From: a virus
Length of the DNA stretch: 64,000 nucleotides
Strand: one strand, 5' to 3'
Virus record (IMG/VR): IMGVR_UViG_3300033145_003080
Location: 1-64,000 of that record
The notes under the pieces are model-generated. The model made no database searches. It had not been told where the DNA came from and saw only the letters and a list, made by a program, of their open reading frames with translations. Of the stretch, positions 3,748 through 54,993 are shown in pieces (position 1 is the stretch's first letter; every line of letters begins with the position of its first letter). Both the position numbers and the translations under genes were made by a program.

Positions 3748-6700
3748 TGGATTTAAGAGCAAATACAGCGGTTGACGTTTTGATAGGTCCTTTTGTAGAT
3801 AAAACAGATGGTAATACTACTGAAGATGGTTTGACTTTGCCACAAGCTGAAATAAAATTATCTAAGAATGGTCAGGCATTAACCCAGAAAAATGATAATA
3901 CAACAGCAGCGTTTGACGATGACGGCTATTACAATTGTGAACTTGATAGTACTGATACTGATACAGAAGGCAATTTGGTATTGATTGTTCACCAATCTGC
4001 GAATGCATTGCCGGTGAGACATGAATATAATGTACTTTCCGAGGCTGCATGGGATAGTCTGTATATTGCTAAAGACGACGGCTTTATGGATATTAATATC
4101 AAAACTGTAGGACGTGCTGATACTCAGGAAACCGAAGCAAACAATCTTAAAGCTGCATGTAGTAATTACTCTGTTACAAGGGGGTTGACAGGTACAGCAG
4201 TACCCGCCGCCGTCTCTGATGCAGCTGGAGGTTTGGTAATTAGTGATGCCGGTGGACTTGATTTAGATGTTGCGCTCAAAAGGGGTATGTTCTGTGGCGG
4301 AGAAGTTTATGTTGATGCTGGTGGGACAAATAGCACAACGTGGCCGTATGGTACACCTACTTATCCTACAGATACCATTGCAAATGGGAAGACTATAGCT
4401 GATGCAAATAGTTTAGATAAGTTTGTTATTCACGGTGATCTTACTATGTCAGCAGCTATGGAGAACTATACCTTTTTCGGTCATGGTCATATGGAAGTTG
4501 CCCATCGAATTAATATTGATAGCCAAAGTGTTGAACATTCAGTTTTTAATGAATTGGTTATTCAAGGGACTATGACTAATGTAACTGGCATTCTCAATAT
4601 AACACGCTTTACCGAATGTCAATTGTGGGCGTTGTCTGATATTCATGGCCTTGCTATTGGCGGCGCACTTCTTGGTGCGTGTTCGATTCTGGATGGTGGT
4701 ATAGCAATATTTAACGATGTAGGTTGTGGTGCCTTGGCAGCATGTACCCTTACACTTCAAGCGCCTGCTATTTGTATTATTGCAAACATGAAAGGCGTTT
4801 TGACGCTTGCCGGAATGGATGGTGGTACATGTAATATTTCAATGCAAAATGGTTCCATACTTACAATAGACAATACCAACAGTGCCGGGACTATTAATAT
4901 TACAGGAACAGGTTCAATCACAGATAATAGTCAAGGTGGATGCACAGTTAATATAACAAAACCTGAAGTTGATACCGTGGAAGTTGGTGGAACATCACAG
5001 ACAGCAAATGATAATGGTGCAGATATAAATACTTTAATTACAAATGTGGGTACTCCTGCAAATATAGATTCCGGTGGTGCTACTCTTTCGGATAATCTTA
5101 AAAAGATTGCAGATGATAATAGTGGGGCAACATTTGATGCTACAAATGACAGTCTTAACAAAGTAAGAATACATATAGGTGATGGAACAAATCTTACAGA
5201 AGCAGGAGGAACAGGAGATCACCTATCTGCTCTTCCTAACCAAACTATGAACATTACCGGTAGTTTATCTGGTTCAGTCGGTAGCGTAAGTGGTGATGTT
5301 GGTGGAGATGTAAAAGGGAAGGTTGATGGTACTGTAACTGGGAAAACTCCTGCTGAAGCCGGTGATGTTATGAACCTTGCTGCTGATGCTATAAAATCGA
5401 CTTCTTACGATGAAAGTTCAGCTTTTCCAATTAAATCAAATGATGCCGGAGCTACTCAGATTGCAAGAGTTGGGGCAGATGGTGATACTTTAGAAACTTT
5501 AAGTGATCAAATCGATTTACAAGCTACCGCAACAGCGCTATCTACACATGATGGAAAATTAGATATTGTTGATGCAAATGTTGACGATCTGTATGAGTCT
5601 CATATTATTCTTAAAACAACAATCGAATCAGCAAACCGGAATCCAACTAATTTACAAATGGCGGCCGGTATTCCTGGTGATAATCAATATAACGGGCTAA
5701 CCGCTGTTTTTCAGGATGGAAATGATGATTGGTACGCAAGGCCAATAACAGATTATGCAGAAATAAATAATGTGATTACATGGTCATTGGCAACTGAACT
5801 AGATCCAAAGGATGGTGGAACAATCTATATAGTTGCTGCACCCGCCGCGGCCGCTGCAGGTGGCGGAGATGCAACGGAAGCAAAACAAAATACCATGATT
5901 GCTAAACTTCTCGCATACGTTCGGTTGATGACGCGTAGTGATGCTGCGGTAGAAACAGACGCTGCAGTTGAATTAACAGCCATAAACGCTGATGAAGGAG
6001 CGGGGGCGGGTGATTACTCATCACAAACACATTCTCAGGAAGCTATTATAGATACAGGAAACGCATCTTGGACAACCGGAGGGGCTGGTTCTCTATCTAC
6101 TATTATTAATGTTCAACCTCTAATTCCATATAATATAGACCTGGCGAATACGGCTGTTTATCGAATGGGTTTGATGTTGATTAATAGTCTCGATGATTTG
6201 CCGAGCACCGCTGAAATAACACCAGGAACCATTTCAATTGATAGAAAGGCTATTGGTGATACTACGTGGAGTTCTATTATATCTGATACAGCAATGTCAG
6301 AAATAGCCGGTTTGGTTTATTATGATGAAGTTTTTGATTCTGGTTCGAATTATGCAGAAGGCGATTCAATAAAAATCACAATGAAGAATGTTAAAATTAC
6401 AGTAGATGCTAATGATCATGAAATTATAGGATCGGCTGGAAGGGTCTTTTATACCTCGATAAAGCAAACGATGGTAGGCACCAATAATGCAAATACAACA
6501 GTTCCTGATCCCGCTGGTACTGCCGCCACTTTGCATACTACTACTGATGGGAAGGTTGACACGGTACAAGCTGATCTTGATATAATAACTGGATCTGACG
6601 GTGCAATCTTAGCCACCACACAGCCCAATTATGCACCCTCAAAAGCCGGTGATAATATGAACCTTGTAGATGATGCAATAACAGCCTCTAAATATGATGA

Positions 6701-12939: not shown

Positions 12940-13743
12940 ATGCCACCTATCGTAGATTTGCAGGAATATATAGACCATTCAGGCGGATGGGATTGGGAAG
13001 ACGCCCATGTATCTCAGGCTTACATTTCCCCTCAAGGTATTGACACAAAAGAATCGATTGCAATAAATGATATTGTTGAATCGGGAACCGTTCTTATCGC
13101 TGCAGGTCCATCAGACCTGGATAAAGCAGTGGAAGACCCTGATGGTTTTAGGGTTGTACCTATCGGCCTTATCGAAACAGCACAGATAAGTATGAATAAA
13201 CCGTTAAGCCGGATATTTGAAATCGGCTCGAAACTCAGCTATATCATACCCGGTCGTACCGTTGGTGGGATAAGCCTTAGCAGAGTATTCTTTGATGGCC
13301 CAAGCCTTTTGAAGGCTATCTATATGGGTGAGGTAAAGTCCGACTTTGCCACACAGGATAAAAAATTCGCCAAATTTGTATCGAACCCTTATTATATTAA
13401 TGGTGACGAAACTTATCAGAAATTCGCTAATATCGGTTCTGGTAACCTGGCGATGAACCTTGCTTCGTCTTTTTTTGAACAACCTATTGGTCTTGCGTTT
13501 TATTTTAAAGATCAACAGGATGATGTGGTAGGACAAACCTATTTTGAAGGATGTCGCGTCAGCACATTGAATATGGGTATATCTGCGAATATGAATGTGC
13601 TTACCGAATCTATCAATATGGAATTTATACGTTGCAGGCCTATCAACACTGCTGCATCGATAGACTATGTGAAGGGGGAAAATTTAGCTGATCTCAATAT
13701 TATTTCTGAACAGACGAATTGGGATTCCAGCGTTATTACATAA
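12940..13743 (+). CDS. Tail tube protein
   Basis: Follows the sheath; IGLIE...RIFEIGS....IPGRT...ISLSRV and YFEGC motifs; strong AAGGAGG RBS. Confidence 0.7.
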   Translation: MPPIVDLQEYIDHSGGWDWEDAHVSQAYISPQGIDTKESIAINDIVESGTVLIAAGPSDLDKAVEDPDGFRVVPIGLIETAQISMNKPLSRIFEIGSKLSYIIPGRTVGGISLSRVFFDGPSLLKAIYMGEVKSDFATQDKKFAKFVSNPYYINGDETYQKFANIGSGNLAMNLASSFFEQPIGLAFYFKDQQDDVVGQTYFEGCRVSTLNMGISANMNVLTESINMEFIRCRPINTAASIDYVKGENLADLNIISEQTNWDSSVIT

Positions 13744-13765
13744 TAATACTACCTTTCTAATAGTT

Positions 13766-13801
13766 AAAAAAAAGAGAGCTTGAAATGGCTCTCTTTTTTT
13801 T
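13766..13801. terminator. Bidirectional intrinsic terminator after the tail tube gene
   Basis: A8-gagagc-loop-gctctc-T tract. Confidence 0.8.
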
Positions 13802-14640
13802 CCTCTAACTAAATTTCGAACATTATTCTAATCAACCCAAAACACAACCTCAAGGTGGCGGCTTGTACCGGAATTGCAGATCTCATCGGGGGTCGGTATT
13901 GTCCCCATGAAATGGGTTTTCGTAATTTGTCGAAGCAACAAATTGTAGAAATCTTAGAGGAAAATGAAACTCCAACTTAAATATAGCTAAACTTTGCTTT
14001 GAGACGCAACCCCGAAAGAGCGAGCAGAATTCGTCCGCGGGCCGTCATCTTCAGCAGACGCTTCAAAGACCATCGGGTCCCAGTCATCATCGCGTCGACC
14101 ACTCAGTGGTATTTTTTGCCTTGACGATACATCAAGTGTAAAATCTTGGAGTTAAATATACGAATTAAAAATAAGAAGGTGTGGAGATCGCTCCCCACAC
14201 CTCTTGCAGTAACGGCTCTAGCTGCAACTTGTCTCTGGATAATAAAAAAAGTTTTTTTATTTTCCGGAGACCTCCAATGGTCGCTGAAGCAGCGATGTAT
14301 CTTAGAACCTTCTGGAAAAGGAATTTCTCAAACTAAAGTTCGAATCGTTTGGCGAGGTACGGCTTCCCTTCGGCGCCTAAATGATAACACTTCAACTCCA
14401 GGTCGGGTCCCAGACGCAGATTTCCAAATCGATTGATCGGGAAAGTTGGATCCCCGCGGCAGCCAGCAGCTTCCGGATTCCGGGTGGATCCGAGCCAAAC
14501 CACCACCCCATAACGTGTCGTGTTTTGATTTGCTCTCAGCAAATCAACGACCAGTCTGAAGCGAACTCCGCTCCAGAGCGAGCTTCATGGCTGAGTATGG
14601 GGTGGTATAAGTAAACGCTGACGAAACGTCAACGCATTTA
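13801..14640 (+). ncRNA. Candidate large structured ncRNA (about 840 nt), family unassigned
   Basis: GC-richer than its flanks, no credible ORF, many nested stems. G-U pairs, a cUUCGg and a cGAAAg favour the + strand. Confidence 0.65.
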
Positions 14641-14705
14641 TATCCTTTGAGAAAAAAAGGGGTAAAAATTAATTAACCCATTCACTATAATAGTTATTTC
14701 AATTT

Positions 14706-15014
14706 TTAGCTTAAAATAACATCTGTGTATTTCTTTTCTTTTTTCAAACCCTGCACCATACCGCAAACCTTTCCTTTTTCAAACACAATTACTGTAGGTA
14801 AGTATGTGATTGAATATTGCGCCGCAAGGTTATAATTTTCAATTGCATCTATTTTAAAAAAATTAATATTTTCAGTTTTTTTCATTATCCTTTTCAAAAC
14901 GGGTTCTATTGTTTTGCAATGCCAACATAATTTGCTAGAAAAAAGAACAACAACCCGTTTGTCGCTTTGTAACACTTCTCTTATGAAAGTGCAATTCGCT
15001 ATTTCTTTCATCAT
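14706..15014 (-). CDS. Thioredoxin-family protein
   Basis: CWHC active-site motif, cis-Pro motif YLPT, 102 aa. Confidence 0.85.
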   Translation of the reverse strand: MMKEIANCTFIREVLQSDKRVVVLFSSKLCWHCKTIEPVLKRIMKKTENINFFKIDAIENYNLAAQYSITYLPTVIVFEKGKVCGMVQGLKKEKKYTDVILS

Positions 15015-15550: not shown

Positions 15551-16753
15551 TTATCCAAGCCCCACGTTATAAAACTGAATTCTACAATATATTAAACCTT
15601 TCGGTCTCCACAATAATACACTTTTATTGTAGGAAGCCTGAAAATTATTATCAAAACTCGTCCTAAGTGTTATACACGCTTTTTTAAGACTTCTTATAGA
15701 ACCAATAACAACACCCTTTGTCCTATTAGACACTTTAATAATATCGTAATGTTTAAAACCATTCTTTTCAAAACATGTTTTTGTAGGATTGCTCTCCCAT
15801 ACCTTTGCTCTTTTTGGTATTATATTATAAATATCACTTTTGTATTCACTTGCACCAACCATTGCTGATGCATCGTGATAATGCTCTTTTTTTAATCCTA
15901 ATTTTTTTCTTGTCTTTGCAGTCATCCAACCAAAACATATCTTTACTATTCCAAATCTTTTTTTTAATTCATTAAATAAATACCATTTACCTTGTTGAAG
16001 GTGAGCCTGATATTTAAAGTGTTTAGGTTTTCTATTAAGTACCCAGGTGTCATTATGGAGATCTGTATGACACGTTTTACATAAAGTGATTCCATTGCTA
16101 ACCCTGTTTGTTCCCCCTTTTAATTTTGTATTTATGTGATGCGCTTGCAATTCATTTTTACACCTACAATGTTGACAGACATAATTGTCTCTCCATAAAA
16201 CCTTTTGTCTCCAATTGTTCCCTTCATACTCAGATAACTGATACTCTTTTCCTGTTAACTTATAACCAGCGCTAATTGAAGATATGTCAAACTGCCCCTG
16301 CTCAACAACACACTTAGTTATATTTAATCTCTTTTTAATATCATCAACTACCCTCAGAATTGATTCTTTCTTCTGTTTAATTGTCGGTGGCAACCAACCC
16401 TTTTTACCTCTATTTAAAAACCTTGCTTTACGGTGTCTTAAATTTCTTGATCTTCTTGCTTTTCGGTATTGCGCCCTCTGAAGCATTTTTCTTGAAACAT
16501 CCTGCCTTAATTGAATATTACCAGCAAATACTATTTTATTACCATGAGCTACTGATATTCCAACTATTTTCGCACCGTCATCAATTCCAACTTTAAATTC
16601 CCCAACAGGATTTTTAATTTCTTTATTCAATTGAATTGTAAAAGGTTCAACAGAATACACTTTAGCCCTACCGTTCTTCAGTAAAAGCCTGGCCCTTGCT
16701 CCATTCGTTGGAAGCAAAGGCTTGCCTCTACTGTCAATTACAAAAATAGACAT
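15551..16753 (-). CDS. iscB: IscB RNA-guided endonuclease (OMEGA system)
   Basis: PLLP (PLMP) N-terminus; RuvC-I GIDDG; Arg-rich bridge helix; RuvC-II E (VVEQGQFD); HNH (CQHC...HH...N...LCKTCH); RuvC-III HYHDA. Confidence 0.92.
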   Translation of the reverse strand: MSIFVIDSRGKPLLPTNGARARLLLKNGRAKVYSVEPFTIQLNKEIKNPVGEFKVGIDDGAKIVGISVAHGNKIVFAGNIQLRQDVSRKMLQRAQYRKARRSRNLRHRKARFLNRGKKGWLPPTIKQKKESILRVVDDIKKRLNITKCVVEQGQFDISSISAGYKLTGKEYQLSEYEGNNWRQKVLWRDNYVCQHCRCKNELQAHHINTKLKGGTNRVSNGITLCKTCHTDLHNDTWVLNRKPKHFKYQAHLQQGKWYLFNELKKRFGIVKICFGWMTAKTRKKLGLKKEHYHDASAMVGASEYKSDIYNIIPKRAKVWESNPTKTCFEKNGFKHYDIIKVSNRTKGVVIGSIRSLKKACITLRTSFDNNFQASYNKSVLLWRPKGLIYCRIQFYNVGLG

Positions 16754-16960
16754 TTAAGCTATCTCCTTTTAAGGTTACAGTGTTCTCGACAAAGACCGCC
16801 TGTTCTTTATATAAGCCCTTTCGAACATTCTCCAGAGCCATTAGAGCCTCAAGCTGAACAAACTCAAGGGTAACTATTCTTTCGAATAAACAGAAGTCGT
16901 AGCTGTAATATTTCACCCATAACAGTGGACTTAATTCCCAGCTTAGCCTTAAAGCTGTTC
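16754..16960 (-). ncRNA. omegaRNA (HEARO-like) scaffold upstream of iscB; boundaries approximate
   Basis: The minus strand has GCTACG...TAGTTACC...CAGCTTGAGGCTCTA...TTTGTCGAG motifs and hairpins directly 5' of iscB, the canonical position. Confidence 0.7.
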
Positions 16961-17766
16961 TATCAAAATCTGATAGATTTTAGTAAATCTTTATAAATTT
17001 TTACTAACTGTTATGAAGCCTTTCTGTTGTTTGTTCAAGATTTGGTTTTGATAATAATTCTATTAACTCTTTATATGACAAAGGCCTTCCTTTCTCTGTA
17101 AGATGTTCAATATCTCCAGCGCCAATAAAATAGCCTAATGGTAAATTCATTATTATATGGGCGAGCTTTTCCCGCGTTGCATTGTAATAATATTTTTTCA
17201 GAAAAATATAAAGGAACTCTTTAAATTTTGGCTCTACTAAAGAGTCGAAATTCGCCATTAACTCATCAATGTGTTGTGACACTATTTTTCCTTATTTTTC
17301 TTCTGTCGAAAAACCGGTATTCTAGTCTGGCATGTCGGACATACAATAGATGCGTTCTCATTATCATACAGTGCAAGCCATACATTTTTACACAGGTGAC
17401 AACGGACGTGTTTGGTAAGATATCCTGCTTTTGTGTACTTCTGCAGTCTGATTTCCTTTTTGATTGCCTCTATAATATTGGCAGTTACGATGTCGTCCAC
17501 ACGAAGTTCCCTTGCACGCTTTTCTTCATATGCTTTAAGCATCGCCGTCATAAGGCTTATATCAGAGTTTGTTTCAAAAAAAATTAACATAATAAATCCT
17601 AACGCTTACCTTGCTTTTGGATCTTTTGCTGCAAACCAAAATTACTCCTTACTTTATAGTTATTACAACAAATCTGCAAATATCACAGATAAAAATATAG
17701 GTAGCAGGATTTTTCCCACTACCTATAATATACAATAAAATATTGAAAATTACACTAAGTCTTATT

Positions 17767-20860: not shown

Positions 20861-20888
20861 GTTATACCAAATAATAGTCATTAATAAC
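20861..20888 (-). promoter_or_regulatory. Repeated phage promoter GTTAT-N14-TGGTATAAC (representative copy)
   Basis: The same spacing occurs at 21325-21352, 29430-29457, 31847-31874, 32360-32387, 32853-32880, 33315-33342, 38556-38583, 40020-40047, 42572-42599 and 54942-54969. Nearly all copies are intergenic and upstream of minus-strand genes. Confidence 0.8.
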
Positions 20889-27460: not shown

Positions 27461-30400
27461 TTATCCCTCCACGGTTATTTTGACACGACGACATTTACGA
27501 TAAGCACGTTTTCTAAATTCGTCAGCTTTTTCCCACTTATCATAATTCGTCAAGTCTTTTACTTTTTTCTTTAATAATTTAGCCAGCTTCTCTTTTCTAA
27601 AATTAGCACCATCAGCGAAATATCTGAAACAACTTTTATCAGGATCGCAGTGCTTCTTTTTCCATTTTGGGTGGCAGGTGTCAGTATTTGCCCCATCAAT
27701 TTTCCCATCACAAAGTTTCAGTAGATTTTTACCGGTTGAAATTGAATAGCAGTAAACCGTTACTTTTTTCCGCCGACTCATAACACCTCCTAGACGTCAG
27801 GGTACTTTTGTTTTAACCTCGCCAGCTCAGCGAGCTCTTTCTCCTCTGCTTCTTTCTCCTCATCATGCTTATCAACATGTCTTTTGAATTCTTTCAGGTC
27901 TGATATACTGACAGGCTGTGATTTCTCTACCTCAAGAATGAGAATCGATTGGACCTTATCAAGCCCACATAAGAATTCAGAGCTATCTTCCAAATCTTTA
28001 GCAGGAGCAAGCATGAGTTTTACCATTTCCTGCGCACCAGCCATGTCAACACAACCTTCAAGCCGCATCCAGTTTTTATTACAACCGATGCTATGATCGC
28101 AACCCTCCCCGACACCTACTACTAAAACCCAAAACTGATTCATTGATCCTCCTCATTAATTTTACGTAAAAATCTCTACACTCCAAGGTCGATTTGAAGA
28201 ACATCGTCATCCTTAAGTGATTCAATCTTCTGCAAGATGCTTGCGTAATGGCTGATTTTCTCGATATCGTCCCCATCTTCCATATCATAACCATGTTTTT
28301 CCTCGTTCAGCCAATCATGCTCGAGAAGTTCCTTCTTCTCCACAACATACGGATCTTCATCCGGCAAATCCCCTTCATCTTCAAGAAAGGTATAAAGGGC
28401 AGTGACCTCTTCGTCATTCAACTCAGGGTCGTAACGCACAAACTCAAGTTTTTTCATTTACGTTTACTCCTCTTTTTTTAAAGTAATCAAGTTATTCTGT
28501 TTATTTTTTCTCCTTACGGACAAGCTTCGATAAATCAAGTGGAACTTTTTCATGCCAATCAGATGGTCCATCCTTATGCACAATAATGTTCCACATAATC
28601 CAGAAATTGAGAGTCCAGAATAAAAAATTCAACTCTATATGAAACGATTTCCAACTCCTGTTCCATCCACTGTGAACGCCTTGAGGCCAAGTTCTGATAC
28701 CAAACCCCATACCTCTATAAATAAAGTGTTTACCAAGAAAGAAACCTTTCGTAGTAATATACAGATTGTACATACCATTCTTTATCGGCCTCCATTGTAT
28801 TTTATACCATCCCGGATCTTTTTCAGGCCACATTTCTTTTAGAGGTCGCAGTTTTTTAAGAAATTCATAATCACAACTTACAGTCACCTCCTAATCTACT
28901 CGAGTGAGCTTGTCATTCTTTTTACATTGGGGGCACCATGGGGCCGATACCCCTATTTTGTCAGATGTCGGCGTGCCGTAACACGGGCCTACATATCCAC
29001 AATGGCCACATTTGTACTTATTTTTTACACTCTCAGGATTTTTATTATCATTTCTAATAGCAAAATCACTCGAAGTCCATTCGCAGACTTCTCCATTAAC
29101 ATCGGGTATATTAACAGGCTTGGTATTACATTTTACTGCGATCTCAAGCTCTTCACCAATACCAGCATAATCGATAATAATAAGAGCTTTGCTGTTATGG
29201 GCCTCAACAGCAGTTTGCACATCTTCCATATTTAATAACCCATGTGTGTGAAAAAACATTAACCCCCTCCTTCCGGTTTGAATTGGTTTTCGAATCCTCC
29301 TTATTTTTCTCGTGTCATTCCCCACAAAGTATCCCTGATCAGTTTGTGAATATTCCAAAAATATTCTGCGTATATGGACAAAACTGCTATCCAAACGCGC
29401 AATATAATAGCGATCCACTTTATACGATTGTTATACCAGTTTTATCCATAAGATAACCAGCTCTATATGACTACTCATTGCGCAGCCTCCTCTCCTGGAA
29501 AAGCTTCTCCGAGCGCGCCATGCACTTCGCCCTCAATTGAGGTCTCCGGCTCTGTATCCCTGTCGTGTAAAATTCCCGGTTTAAGAGGAGCGAAACTCAT
29601 TGCACTTAAATCTGGCATAAGAGCCGCATCCACACTTGCATCACAAAACATGCTCCTCAACGGCGGTATTGGTGCTGGAATACCAAGAAACGTTATATCA
29701 GTGGGGCATAATATCGCCAACCTCCTGCTTTTTATATTTTCAGCAATAACAACTATCTTGCCGTCATGCTGATACAGTCCATGGAAATAAAAGCTATTAC
29801 CATGATCGTCTCTACATTTTTTCATTTATTATGCCCTCTTTATTATTTCACAATTACAATCAATATTACGGCTATCGCAGAAATGTTTAATCCATATCCA
29901 TTCCACCTTTTCAGTCGTCAATCTTTCGAACGTTATAACTTTATCACCATAAGCATCCTGCAACATGCTGTTCCTGTTGACAAAAAAAAACCTGTTATTA
30001 TACATATCAACAGTAAATAAGACAGTGTCTGATACAAATAATAATCGATACAACAGGTTGAATCCCGGGTGATATTTTCCCTCTGTTTTAATAAGAACAT
30101 TTCCATACGGATTTAATTGAGATATTTTCTCTTTTGTCAAGCCTATTTGCTGCAGGTCTTTATCGTTTCTCAGGATGATTGAGATTCTATACGCTACCAT
30201 ATATCGTTCTCCCAAGTGTAACCAATGCGTTTATCTTTGCAATGTTCTGCAAATTGATTAAATATTCTAGGAACAAAAGTACCGATTAAATGAATATTAT
30301 TTGGATATTTTAGCTCAAATCTATATACCATACCATTAACCATAACTGGAAAACCTTTATAGTTCACGCAAGCTAATAAACCAAGTAACTGATATTCATT

Positions 30401-37337: not shown

Positions 37338-38569
37338 TTTTGTTTCTTCAATTTTTCTGAATATGTTTCATTACCCACTCTCCTCTTTTGCCAACTCATC
37401 CTTCAAAAGTTCTACCAGCTTTTTAAAATCAATATAAAGCAGAGTACTTGCATCACCAGACTCACCTCCAACACAAATAAGCTTTTCTTTTACCCATTTG
37501 TTTTTAATATATTCTCTTAACTTATGTGTATTACCTGGTATCTTAGGCTCATATAATAGGGGGTGGTTACCTTCCACTATTACACCGTCATCCGAGATTC
37601 CCCAGCACACATCGTCTGAGATGCTGTGCAGCCCTTCCGCTCTATAATTAACATTTGCACGCTGGTGATTAGATGGCAAATTAAAAAATTTAGACAATCT
37701 CTTTAAAAAGCTCACGGCTACTCACCTCCCTGCCAAGTTTTTGGTATTCTGCCAAATCCAACTGAATCCAAACAAGGTCGCACTCATTATCTTTTATAAG
37801 CGCTGTCATTGTTTCTATTAAGTTTTTGTATATTTCCTCTCTTTTCGACCTGCGTATGCCATAAGCCTCTTCGACATAATCAAATACATAAGCTTTAGTT
37901 TTATTATCGTAATACATATCATATAACAAACTTATTGAATTTTCTTTCTCAAAAATAAATCTGCCATAATAACTTTCAACAGCGCAAGTGTATATCCCGG
38001 CCTCAAGACCAGATAGTTTTATTACGAAGGTTTTAACTTCAGTAATTTCATGATTAATGTCTCCCATTTTATCCTCCTGATTAAAAAAAGCGCCTGGTCA
38101 GGGCGCTATGGTATGCGCGAGGTTGAACATAAATAAAATTATGACAACCACGATAAATATAAAGATTTTCCACTTCATTGTATACTCCTTAGAATAAAAA
38201 GAGACGGCCGGGATACATTGTACAGAAAATCCACCCAGGAACTGTACAATTGCTCAACCAGCCGTCGCCCTCATCATTGCCCCTCCCCCAAAAAAGGGAG
38301 GTTTATATACCCAATAAGTGCGGATATTCACTACCACCATCGATGGAATCGTTAGAATGCGCCGTTCCACCAATATTTTCTTCACTACCGTCATCCAATT
38401 GATACTCTTCTTGGCCAGGCCGATAGTCCGGATCGCTAATAAATACTTCTTCACTATCATCTTCAGGAAAAGGCATATCATCCTCCATACGTTTATATTA
38501 AATTTTACTTAATTTGTTCATAATAAAAAAATAATACCTATCCATTACTATTATGGTTATACCAAGAAT

Positions 38570-38601
38570 GTGATTATTATAACAGATAAAACTGTTATCT
38601 T
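38570..38601 (-). mobile_element. Putative TnpB right end / 3' part of the reRNA scaffold
   Basis: The stop codon is followed by hairpin ATAACAG-N6-CTGTTAT and then AATAATCAC, ending in TCAC as in IS605-type right ends. Confidence 0.55.
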
Positions 38602-42483: not shown

Positions 42484-43335
42484 ATTGTTAACCTATCCTT
42501 GTTAAATTAGTATGAATTATAAAAGTAAAGGGCTATTACGCCCTTTAATATGAATTAATCTCTACAAAATGGTTATACCAGAATAGGATTGGTTATAACG
42601 AAATAAGAAAAACTTTCACTTTTACAAAAACTTTTTCTTGATTTTGCGGTAATAAGGAGGTAAGGTCACCCCACACGCTAAATGCTTTGCCCCACAATGA
42701 AGGCAAAGCTTACCAATTAGCCGAAGCGACCATGGGTACACTTTAGATATAGATCTACAGAATGGGCATTTAATAAATTCATGTTTACTATCAGTATCGA
42801 TTTTATATCTATCATGTACCAAAGAAGCTTGATAAAAGTGGAGTACCAAATTGCGGAGATTCATCTGAATCGCCTCCTAATGGGTAAAATTTATTGTTCA
42901 ATATGTAAAACCTATTGCCCGAATCACTGTCACCAGAAATTGCCAACCCACCATCAGCATTTGAACCAGTAATAGACGACATACTACATTCAGAAGAACC
43001 AAAATCAACACCCGTAAATATTCCATCCATATACCGTCTGAATCTTTCATTTACAGGATTCATTAACATTTCGCCAGGAAGCATGTCATTATTTCTATTT
43101 GTCCGACGGGCCGTTCTGTTCCCTGAATGGTTTGCATAACCTTCTGCAAGGGGTGGTTTACAAAATTCTGCAAGGTACTCATTTGCAAAAACAGGCGTAC
43201 CTGCCTCATCAAGAAAGTCTGCAAATTCTTTCCATAATCCACCCCAACTGTTGAGTCCAATTCCGTTCACCATTCTATCTTTGCGAACAAAACCAACATC
43301 TGATTCAACCCAATTTTTGAGAATTGTTTCCATAG

Positions 43336-53400: not shown

Positions 53401-54993
53401 ATATATTCGTTTATTGTATCATATTCATAATTATGAAGCGCTTCTGCAATAGAGTACTCACTGATATTGCCGAGCTGGGTTTTTGTTGGGAACACTTTTT
53501 TCCACAACTGGACAGCATCCTTTTTTTGTAATTCATCAAGCATTTTATTCAAGCCTTCCTTTGGGGGCTGTGGGATCTAATTTTTGAATCTTATCCATAA
53601 TTGTATTAAATTTTTTCGACAACCGGCCGATGCTGGGCCTGATTGTTAAAGCGAGAGAGGCACCACAGCTGAATTCATCAAGCTCTGAATTGTATGCTTT
53701 ATAAACCAACCGGGCTCTGTATTTTAACAGTTGTATTCTTATCGATTTTATCATTTATCAACCCCTTCTATGGAGACAGTATTAATTAAACCCCCTTTGC
53801 AATATCCAATCCACTTCCCTTTATAATGAACGGTACCCTGGATTATATGAGATGGTATTTTGATAAGTTCGAAGAACCCGGCGTACCAATATTCGTTTTC
53901 TGCATCGATAATTGCAATGAAGTATTCTTTTTTAAAATATTCAACAATTAGAGAACGCAGTTGTTGGTTAGATTTTGTTTTTAAACCAACCTTACCCATG
54001 TGCCTTTGGGCTTCAGGGGCGAGATTCATCATAAACAACCCGGCAATAATTTTATCATTTAAAGCTTTCTTAAGGAGCTTGCACAGCCATTTGTTATACA
54101 TCTTTTTTCGCCATTCATTTTGCACTTATAATCCTCCTTATTTTTATTTCAATCGCTTAAGTAAAATTAATAATAATCAGTATCACAACATTCAATATTA
54201 CTCATTATCTTAGCAACTGTTTTCCAGTTATAATTAAAACTAGTCCCTAAATAAAACACAGACCTGGCAAGCATAATTAGATGGTCATCATAATATTCTT
54301 CAACATCACTCCTTATTTCTCTTTCACATTTAAAATATTTCTGAAGATGCTCTGGGGCTTCTTCTATTTTTTTAAGTGCACATTGACATTTGTATTCAAC
54401 AAAATCTTCAGTCCTATCCCACTCTCCAACATAACTTCTTGCAATACTAATTCTTGAGGCGATTTGCAAGACTGTGCCGTTTAGGGCTTTTTGATATAGA
54501 TCAATTGCAGCAAGACGATCAGCTCTGGTTATTGGTTGTTGTTCTGGCATTATTTATTTTCCCTGATATCACAGATTTCTTTTAATGTCTGGTGAGCATG
54601 ATCAGGTATATGGTTAAGCCATTTTTCAGCCCATTCCAGAACCAGAACAGCAAGCGCTTCCCTGTCCCGGGAAACTAATTTTATATTATCGATTTCAAAA
54701 TCGTTAAAGTGAAGTGTTTTGTGACATAGCTTTATCGAAACGCATGTTTGGCCGTTTTTTATACTTTCTATAGGTTCGCCAAACAGCGCGCATGAATCTT
54801 TACACTCTTTATTTTCTCCATCCGGACAGAATTGTTTCGTCATTTCTCCACGGACTTGAATTATTAAATTACCTTCATGATCAATTTTACCCTTCATACT
54901 CCCTCCTTTAAAAAGAATATTGGCTAACACCATCTATAATTGTTATACCAGAATAAACATGATGATAACAGCTAAAAAAAATAATTGTAAAAT

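Follow-up and report, generated by a model that had tools for sequence, protein, structure and literature searches.

Large, elaborately folded RNAs of bacteria and phages are, to our knowledge, rare, and the few described include GOLLD, ROOL, OLE, raiA and HEARO. Each of these large RNAs opened up new RNA biology when it was found, most recently with RNA-only nanocages. In GOLLD and ROOL, neither of which has an assigned function, a conserved core is joined to a poorly conserved “variable linker”, and in GOLLD and OLE palindromic loops make symmetric contacts between copies (PMC12286853). The element described here shares with GOLLD and ROOL its phage origin, a length of several hundred to more than 800 nt, and an elaborate covarying fold with a conserved core and a variable part. 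The original prediction had drawn this comparison, which holds for size and phage origin and fails for covariance-model membership: neither model matched the window, the interval 13600–14900 at E values up to 10, or any of 15 related loci. Our preferred reading, to which we assign a probability of about 60%, is that a stand-alone gene for a non-coding RNA of about 920 nt lies on the minus strand of a gap between two convergent gene sets, and that its product probably acts in trans as a scaffold; this judgement is drawn from sequence and predicted folds.

The window, i.e., the whole stretch of DNA that was analysed, covers the first 64 kb of an IMG/VR virus contig that is 149 kb long, carries inverted terminal repeats and has a GC content of 0.376. 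Open reading frames between 535 and 13743 lie on the plus strand, and from 14706 onward nearly all are on the minus strand, leaving a 962-nt gap between the convergent sets (13744–14705) in which the RNA candidate is located. The gap has a GC content of 0.46–0.55, above that of its flanks, and its plus strand carries more C than G. On the right it is bordered by a thioredoxin gene (14706–15014, minus strand) and on the left by a plus-strand gene for a protein of 267 aa (12940–13743). The latter had been labelled the tail tube gene, a label for which no support was obtained, as the protein has no match in Pfam, PHROG or PDB (including a PDB profile search) and its AlphaFold model is poor, with a mean pLDDT of 47.6, and unfit as a query for structure searches. 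An ORF with RRXRR and HNH domains (IscB-like; 15551–16753, minus strand) lies 850 nt from the element, and IscB, TnpB and HNH genes are present in the phage genome. The tRNA genes of the window are found at 57.8–58.3 kb, away from the element.

Two features generally looked for in a stand-alone non-coding RNA, the lack of a conserved ORF and compensatory changes in the helices, are both seen here. No ORF longer than 96 aa occurs in 13744–14705, and none is conserved in the relatives described below; the 96-aa ORF matches one of them (L005) in two separate pieces with about 52% identity, which we take to reflect a frame shift, and it has no other convincing match. A gene hidden by another genetic code was considered and rejected, since reading TGA as W or TAG as Q opens only unconserved frames of 203 and 125 aa, which are open on both strands alike. 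When the window was scanned with cmscan against Rfam at the gathering threshold, only two tRNAs were returned, and a permissive scan of 13600–14900 (E up to 10) gave only noise around the terminator. Rfam offered no family for the element in the 15 related loci either; the covariance models of OLE, RNase P, tmRNA and the group I and group II introns did not match, ARAGORN found no tRNA or tmRNA gene in 13600–14900, and no similar DNA was found among GenBank phages. The candidate keeps the standing originally proposed for it, that of a large, ornate non-coding RNA without a known family.

More than 200 close relatives of the 267-aa protein occur in metagenomes, and about 140 loci around them were retrieved for comparison. 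Most of these lack a long gap and instead carry, 50–100 nt from the 267-aa gene, a minus-strand gene of 210–250 aa that is annotated as dGTP_diPhyd_N wherever Pfam data exist. A decayed copy of this dGTP-diphosphohydrolase-like gene was considered as an origin of the gap and rejected, as tblastn with 18 such proteins recovered nothing in the region. In one subclade of the relatives, a homologous element of 0.9–1.15 kb occupies the same place. Its carriers fall into group A (the window, L004, L041 and L005) and group B (L010, L011, L140, L145, L146, L138 and the truncated L014). The elements share only about 70% nucleotide identity or less, with many indels, whereas the flanking protein is 80–93% identical. 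The presence of the long element varies among equally close phages, and many of the non-carriers have the dGTP-diphosphohydrolase-like gene in its place; since many equally close relatives do without it, the RNA is dispensable for this phage group. No gene consistently co-occurs with it among the relatives, and no candidate partner protein emerged.

The predicted RNA consists of three paralogous junction modules (D3, D2 and D1) and three linker hairpins, which follow one another on the minus strand, 5′ to 3′, as promoter motif, D3, linker hairpins, D2, D1 and terminator; all features of this and the next paragraph are given for that strand. The largest module, D3 (14324–14654), is closed by the helix P1″ (14646–14654 with 14324–14332). 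Inside it, hairpin H0/H1 (core 14615–14635) bears an invariant G-UUU-C cap, and helix H2 (14596–14606 with 14502–14512) encloses a three-way junction of the arm H3 (14552–14595), the helix H4 (14547–14551 with 14517–14521) and the hairpin H5 (14525–14547). Helix H6 (14494–14500 with 14347–14353) carries the insert V3 (14354–14493; GC 0.57), which is hypervariable in sequence and length, and the conserved junction strand UCGAACUUUAG (14333–14343) continues into P1″. D2 (13968–14153) is closed by 14146–14153 with 13968–13975 and contains the hairpins hpA (14120–14136) and hpB (14098–14110), the insert V2 (about 13998–14097) and a junction strand at 13976–13989. D1 (13801–13961), closed by 13954–13961 with 13801–13808, has hpA at 13924–13944, hpB at 13904–13916, the insert V1 at about 13829–13903 and the junction strand UUCGAAAUUUAG at 13809–13820.

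The modules follow a common plan: a closing helix of 7–9 bp, hpA, hpB, an insert-bearing arm and the junction strand. The loop of hpA, a U-rich triloop closed by G-C, is common to them, hpB of D3 is expanded into the three-way junction, and in D1, D2 and D3 a conserved single strand of 11 nt, UCRAnCUUnAG, runs into the closing helix at its 3′ half. Two direct repeats reflect the same kinship: 13800–13820 and 14324–14344 (21 nt, 86% identity) link D1 with D3, and 13949–13965 and 14141–14157 (17 nt, 82%) link it with D2. No second copy of any module was found elsewhere in the 149-kb genome. Between D3 and D2, the linker (14176–14297) folds into three hairpins that show compensatory changes between the window, L004 and others. 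The first (14281–14297) has a CUU loop closed by G-C, the second (14231–14271) is an AU-rich hairpin of 20 bp that is missing from group B, and the third (14176–14203) consists of 12 bp followed by CUUAUUUUUA and is terminator-like on the minus strand. This last hairpin is conserved in all relatives. It could stop many transcripts after D3 (reading 14203–14176), in which case D2 and D1 would be made only by read-through.

The module number varies within the family, as two further loci, L022 and L147, have a D3-like core and a D1-like module. In L005, a 1.9-kb TnpB element has inserted between the linker and D2, splitting D3 from D2 and D1, neither of which is visibly decayed; the modules therefore need not work as a single molecule.

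Much of this architecture had been seen in the window itself. The long-range stems of the original prediction, TCCTCTAA (13801–13808) with TTAGAGGA (13954–13961), AACTCCAA (13968–13975) with TTGGAGTT (14146–14153) and ACCACCCCATA (14502–14512) with TATGGGGTGGT (14596–14606), are all present, as are local hairpins at 14177–14202, 14231–14271 and 14281–14297, and the view that closing stems delimit domains is borne out by the relatives, in which each is conserved or covarying. The proposed search for homologs and covariation likewise gave conserved elements in about 11 phage contigs with many compensatory changes. In pairwise and multiple alignments, entire helices are swapped in this way, e.g., ACCACCCCATA/TATGGGGTGGT in the window for TATTTCTTTAAC/GTTAAAGAAATA in L010. 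When D2 and D3 were aligned with plain MAFFT, RNAalifold yielded few helices, since hairpins were out of register, and a model-based alignment was used instead. As a formal test, a covariance model, R1, was built of the 5′ half of D3 (193 positions, 54 pairs) from six group B sequences only, all of them distant relatives. In the window, R1 gives 52.5 bits (E about 1e-12) for the copy at 14488–14659, minus strand; the other group A copies, which like that of the window had not been used in the model, reach 77.6 (L004), 60.6 (L005) and 55.4 bits (L041); the E values of the four range from 1e-12 to 1e-19. Weaker matches (E 1e-6 to 7e-4) were obtained in L013, L022, L023, L035, L056, L063, L086 and L147. 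All R1 matches are on the minus strand and all lie in ORF-poor gaps.

In an alignment of 18 sequences, which was fitted to R1, so that pairing and G.U are favoured, and whose members are also related by descent, 93.5% of the paired cells can pair, compared with 69.6% in shuffles and 39–44% with the partners slid by 1–3 columns. In the same alignment, changes on both sides occur in 47 of the 54 pairs, and the covariation score is 0.411 versus 0.134, with none of 500 shuffles as high. The closing helix P1″, which lies outside R1 and begins exactly after the conserved junction strand, is formed with 7–9 bp in nine of ten sequences and covaries, with variants such as UUUCUCAAA/UUUGAGAAA, UUAACGA/UCGUUAA and CAACAA/UUGUUG. 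Of 11 relatives, 10 gave the predicted closing helix in the minimum free energy structure of D2 folded in isolation, and hpA and hpB took the same places; D1 folded alone gave its predicted closing helix, with hpA and hpB fixed in place, in nearly all 11. In pair tables, the stems of hpA and hpB of both modules differ by compensatory changes among the relatives.

The strand that is transcribed was originally thought to be the plus strand, with the RNA made as part of the late transcript. According to this reading, the RNA would prolong the transcript of the plus-strand gene cluster at its 3′ end, by read-through of the terminator at 13766–13801. The plus strand does fold better than dinucleotide shuffles (−260 kcal/mol, z −3.9), its Watson–Crick helices are identical to those of the minus strand, and it has short terminator-like hairpins at 13904–13916 and 14098–14110. 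The minus strand of the window reaches −286 kcal/mol (z −4.6), however, and in 11 of 11 elements it folds better than the plus strand by 16–72 kcal/mol, which also holds for each module alone. The claim that G-U predominates among the non-Watson–Crick pairs of the plus strand did not hold up either: in the covariation-supported helices of the model, the fit to which favours G.U, the minus-strand reading has 62 G.U cells against 23 A.C, and these 62 turn into A.C mismatches when the plus strand is read. Moreover, hpA and hpB of D1 and D2 contain 26 G.U pairs. A strong terminator stands between the plus gene and the element, and the minus strand has a conserved promoter motif, whereas no such motif is conserved on the plus strand. 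Folding, G.U counts, R1 matches, promoter motif and terminator together make the minus strand the most likely RNA strand, and we regard the plus-strand reading as very improbable. The stem beside the U tract, formerly placed at the 5′ end, would accordingly be the 3′ end.

The promoter-like motif, GTTAT-N18-ATAAC, is found at 14693–14720 (minus strand), where it shares bases with the stop codon of the thioredoxin gene. It is a variant (GTTAT-N15-TGAAATAAC-TAT-TATAGTG) of a family of minus-strand promoter motifs of this phage, GTTAT-N15-TGGTATAAC-nAtnATAGT. The pattern matches six times in the window, where 1.1 matches are expected and none of 100 shuffles reaches six, and eight copies of the motif occur in the 149-kb genome. 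Four of the five other copies in the window, which are canonical, are situated 10–90 nt upstream of minus-strand ORF starts. The motif at 14693–14720 is kept in all full-length relatives and also borders the gaps of L022 and L147 on their 5′ side. At the other end, an intrinsic terminator that is bidirectional (13766–13801, both strands) consists of A8-GAGAGC, a loop of 8 nt and GCUCUC-U8, with 14-nt arms that are 100% complementary; among the relatives its stem covaries and the A and T runs are kept. It would end both the plus gene 12940–13743 and the minus-strand RNA. Promoter-like and terminator signals of its own on the RNA strand, a third feature generally looked for in a stand-alone non-coding RNA, are thus present.

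Taken together, transcription would start a few bases downstream of the motif at 14720–14693, pass through D3, the three linker hairpins, D2 and D1, and end at the terminator 13801–13766. The product would be a stable scaffold that works in trans and is produced along with the minus-strand genes of DNA metabolism, which carry the same promoter family. Its three repeated junctions would provide three copies of one binding surface for a protein or RNA partner, with the inserts as loops that are tolerated or displayed.

The element is always found at the 3′ end of a cluster of minus-strand genes for nucleotide metabolism, a position that would also suit a cis-acting RNA of the minus-strand operon, i.e., a very long leader or attenuator with tandem sensors for the dGTP-diphosphohydrolase-like gene, or a protective 3′ UTR of the thioredoxin operon. 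Such a role is suggested by two loci in which a PF18909 gene comes after the element: in L147 a terminator hairpin and then the ribosome-binding site of this gene are found downstream, and in L022 the ribosome-binding site is separated by 4 nt from the closing helix of D1, at its 3′ half. In all 11 three-module elements, the window included, only a terminator follows on the minus strand, however; tblastn finds no homologue of the dGTP-diphosphohydrolase-like gene in the window, and no covarying alternative pairing between D1 and the terminator was seen. The gene upstream is not conserved, being thioredoxin in the window and L005 and unrelated ORFs in L004 and group B, while a conserved promoter motif of its own precedes the element. 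With no gene behind it on the minus strand, either in the window or in the three-module relatives, a variable upstream gene and a separate promoter motif, the evidence argues against a cis role, which we consider unlikely.

The inserts V1–V3 stand apart from the scaffolds. They measure 60–250 nt, have a GC content of 0.40–0.68 (0.53 when pooled), are hypervariable and align poorly between relatives. That they form long helical arms was considered and rejected, as they fold about as well as dinucleotide shuffles on both strands, with z about 0 in most of 32 cases; only V1 and V3 of L041 stand out, and V3 of the window has z +1.1 on the minus and +1.8 on the plus strand. A role as antisense to phage genes was likewise rejected, the best match in the 149-kb genome being 14 nt, which is the chance level. 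V3 of the window holds the palindromes GGATCC (twice), CCGCGG, TCCGGA, ATCGAT and GGCGCC. When the inserts of 11 phages were pooled, 161 palindromic 6-mers were counted against 66.1 ± 7.4 in dinucleotide shuffles (2.4-fold, z 12.8), 43 against 17.0 for 8-mers (z 6.7) and 17 against 4.2 for 10-mers (z 6.6), and in the scaffold blocks of the same phages palindromes are not enriched (z 1.3 or less). In the window's own inserts the enrichment is mild (8 versus 4.5 expected), and its whole element has 17 palindromes per kb versus 19 in the flanks. Palindromic hexamers are retained between phages at 15.8% versus 5.4%, a figure that was set aside as evidence since enrichment alone raises coincidence by a similar factor.

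The palindrome enrichment keeps two further readings alive. One is that the inserts are working parts on rigid display scaffolds, either multivalent, self-complementary stickers through which many copies of the RNA assemble into a cage or condensate, or decoys for a host factor that binds short palindromes; if true, either would make this a hitherto undescribed kind of phage RNA. The strong enrichment in the inserts and its lack in the scaffolds speak for it. Self-dimerisation of the inserts found no support, the cofolding gain over the monomers being that of shuffles (mean z −0.4; 0.0 to +1.8 for the inserts of the window), which speaks against it, as does the mild enrichment in the window's own inserts, and there is only an outside chance that this display reading is right.

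The other is that the region acts at the level of DNA, as tandem miniature non-autonomous mobile elements, a hot spot for recombination or nucleases, an origin or a packaging site. Such mobile elements would have conserved ends, terminal inverted repeats of 7–9 bp and freely drifting middles, and the modules do show conserved ends and hypervariable middles. The inserts could be protein-binding sites or repair scars, their 6- to 10-bp palindromes, strongly enriched in these parts alone, being strand-symmetric. The patchy presence among equally related phages, the TnpB element that landed in the spacer of L005 and the IscB, TnpB and HNH genes of the genome would all fit. Against this, helices far from the ends covary with a strand-biased excess of G.U, which is expected of RNA and not of duplex DNA, and the closing helices change between clades, a misfit with ends recognised by one transposase. 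The region is also GC-rich, while origins are usually AT-rich. The strand-biased G.U excess, the covarying internal helices and the single copy per genome thus argue against a DNA-level element, which we hold to be unlikely.

The RNA has an unusual design, with a single junction module used three times, each time with a fast-evolving, palindrome-rich insert. It is outlined from end to end by the promoter motif, the modules and the terminator, and together with the strong covariation this makes it tractable for structure probing, cryo-electron microscopy and pull-down experiments. It may serve to mark uncultivated sediment and lake phages of 150–200 kb that form a widespread clade, and it offers a concrete case in which to ask what phages gain from large non-coding RNAs.

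Several described systems share single traits with the element. An omega RNA lies directly 5′ of iscB, and a TnpB guide RNA overlaps the 3′ end of tnpB. HEARO/omega RNAs and TnpB guide RNAs are structured RNAs of 150–300 nt in genomes rich in IscB and TnpB genes, and here, too, an IscB-like gene lies nearby. The element, however, is on the 3′ side of the IscB-like gene on the minus strand with two ORFs between them, does not match the HEARO covariance model and is carried by relatives without an IscB-like gene, and its variable parts of 60–250 nt contrast with guides of 16–20 nt. Tandem riboswitches also have repeated junction domains, each closed by a P1 helix and with a conserved junction strand, and in some relatives the element stands upstream of a nucleotide-metabolism gene as a riboswitch leader would. 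In the window it has no downstream ORF (none was found on the minus strand between 13801 and the convergent gene), it is far longer than such leaders and has a hypervariable insert in each domain, and no known aptamer family in Rfam matches it. In CRISPR and TIGR arrays, which also occur in phages, structured conserved parts alternate with hypervariable ones (PMC12045711). Here, there are two or three units of 160–330 nt with the pairing across the variable part and not within a short repeat, and a repeat search found only two-copy families of 11–21 nt spaced by 192–524 nt.

A screen of IMG/VR in 2023 predicted 10,006 unnamed candidate structured RNAs (PMC10690425), and some entry among these motifs may cover part of the RNA. 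Set against Rfam 15 and GenBank phages, no description of its modular architecture, strand and inserts was found, and on sequence grounds it appears to represent a new family of large phage non-coding RNA. From GOLLD and ROOL it differs in that it does not, in the window, lie beside tRNA genes, and from GOLLD and OLE in that the cofolding test gives no sign of self-association; above all, where GOLLD and ROOL form one multi-pseudoknotted fold, this RNA is predicted to be built of three paralogous junction modules in tandem.

The variable inserts of the RNA, which in the window lie at about 13829-13903, 13998-14097 and 14354-14493, are rich in palindromes. Across the 11 elements (the window and its 10 homologous copies), perfect palindromes of 6 to 10 bp occur in the inserts at least 2.4-fold more often than in dinucleotide shuffles (z of 12.8 for the 6-mers), whereas the conserved scaffolds and the flanking genes carry no such excess. 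The enrichment is strongest in the inserts of the related phage loci L010, L011, L140, L145, L146 and L014, and many of the palindromes are classical restriction-site sequences. The inserts of modules D2 and D3 also have in common an exact 11-nt direct repeat, TCGGGTCCCAG, at 14073-14083 and 14403-14413 of the window. Near the 3′ end of D2, a 15-nt stretch (13990-14004) is 87% complementary to 14326-14340, which lies in the junction strand and closing helix of D3; this complementarity may be an inter-module contact or an alternative pairing.

In L005, a 1.9-kb insertion (L005:5207-7105) occupies the spacer that runs from the linker hairpin to module D2 and cuts the homologous element in two; it carries a TnpB gene of 370 aa, with Cas12f1-like TNB and OrfB_IS605 domains, and a helix-turn-helix ORF of 183 aa. 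At the position of the element, the related phage L144 has a gap of 2.2 kb (L144:3823-6029) with a different content: its minus strand carries one or two tRNA-like genes (3899-3984 and 4004-4104). The gap also contains four copies of a hairpin with AATCATTCCTTAGTTAT behind it, and a variable stretch that includes palindromes stands before every copy. The covariance model R1, built on the 5′ half of D3 from six relatives, gives no match in this gap. Selfish nucleases are abundant around the RNA locus in relatives: the upstream minus-strand genes L022:3301-5319 and L147:5720-6828 contain intein, HNH, NUMOD3 and LAGLIDADG domains, the L147 gene being a ribonucleotide reductase that carries an intein.

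The 267-aa plus-strand neighbour (12940-13743) belongs to a family whose closest named relative (identity 90%) is listed by NCBI as part of a metagenome-assembled genome labelled “Thermoproteota archaeon”. The label could be an artefact of binning or could hint at the host. Elsewhere, a minus-strand motif family, GTTAT-N15-TGGTATAAC-nAtnATAGT, which includes an extended −10-like TGnTATAAC, recurs in the window (20861-20888, 29430-29457, 38556-38583, 42572-42599 and 54942-54969) and in the genome (82590-82617 and about 140052-140079). Minus-strand ORFs mostly start 10-90 nt downstream of its copies, and the family is probably an early or middle promoter of the phage.

Two ORFs upstream of the RNA, and on the same strand, lies a gene (15551-16753, minus) for an IscB-like protein of 400 aa with RRXRR (PF14239, E 6.6e-54) and HNH domains. 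Its omega RNA would be expected in the 250-nt gap at 16754-17003; at the Rfam gathering score, HEARO gave no match.
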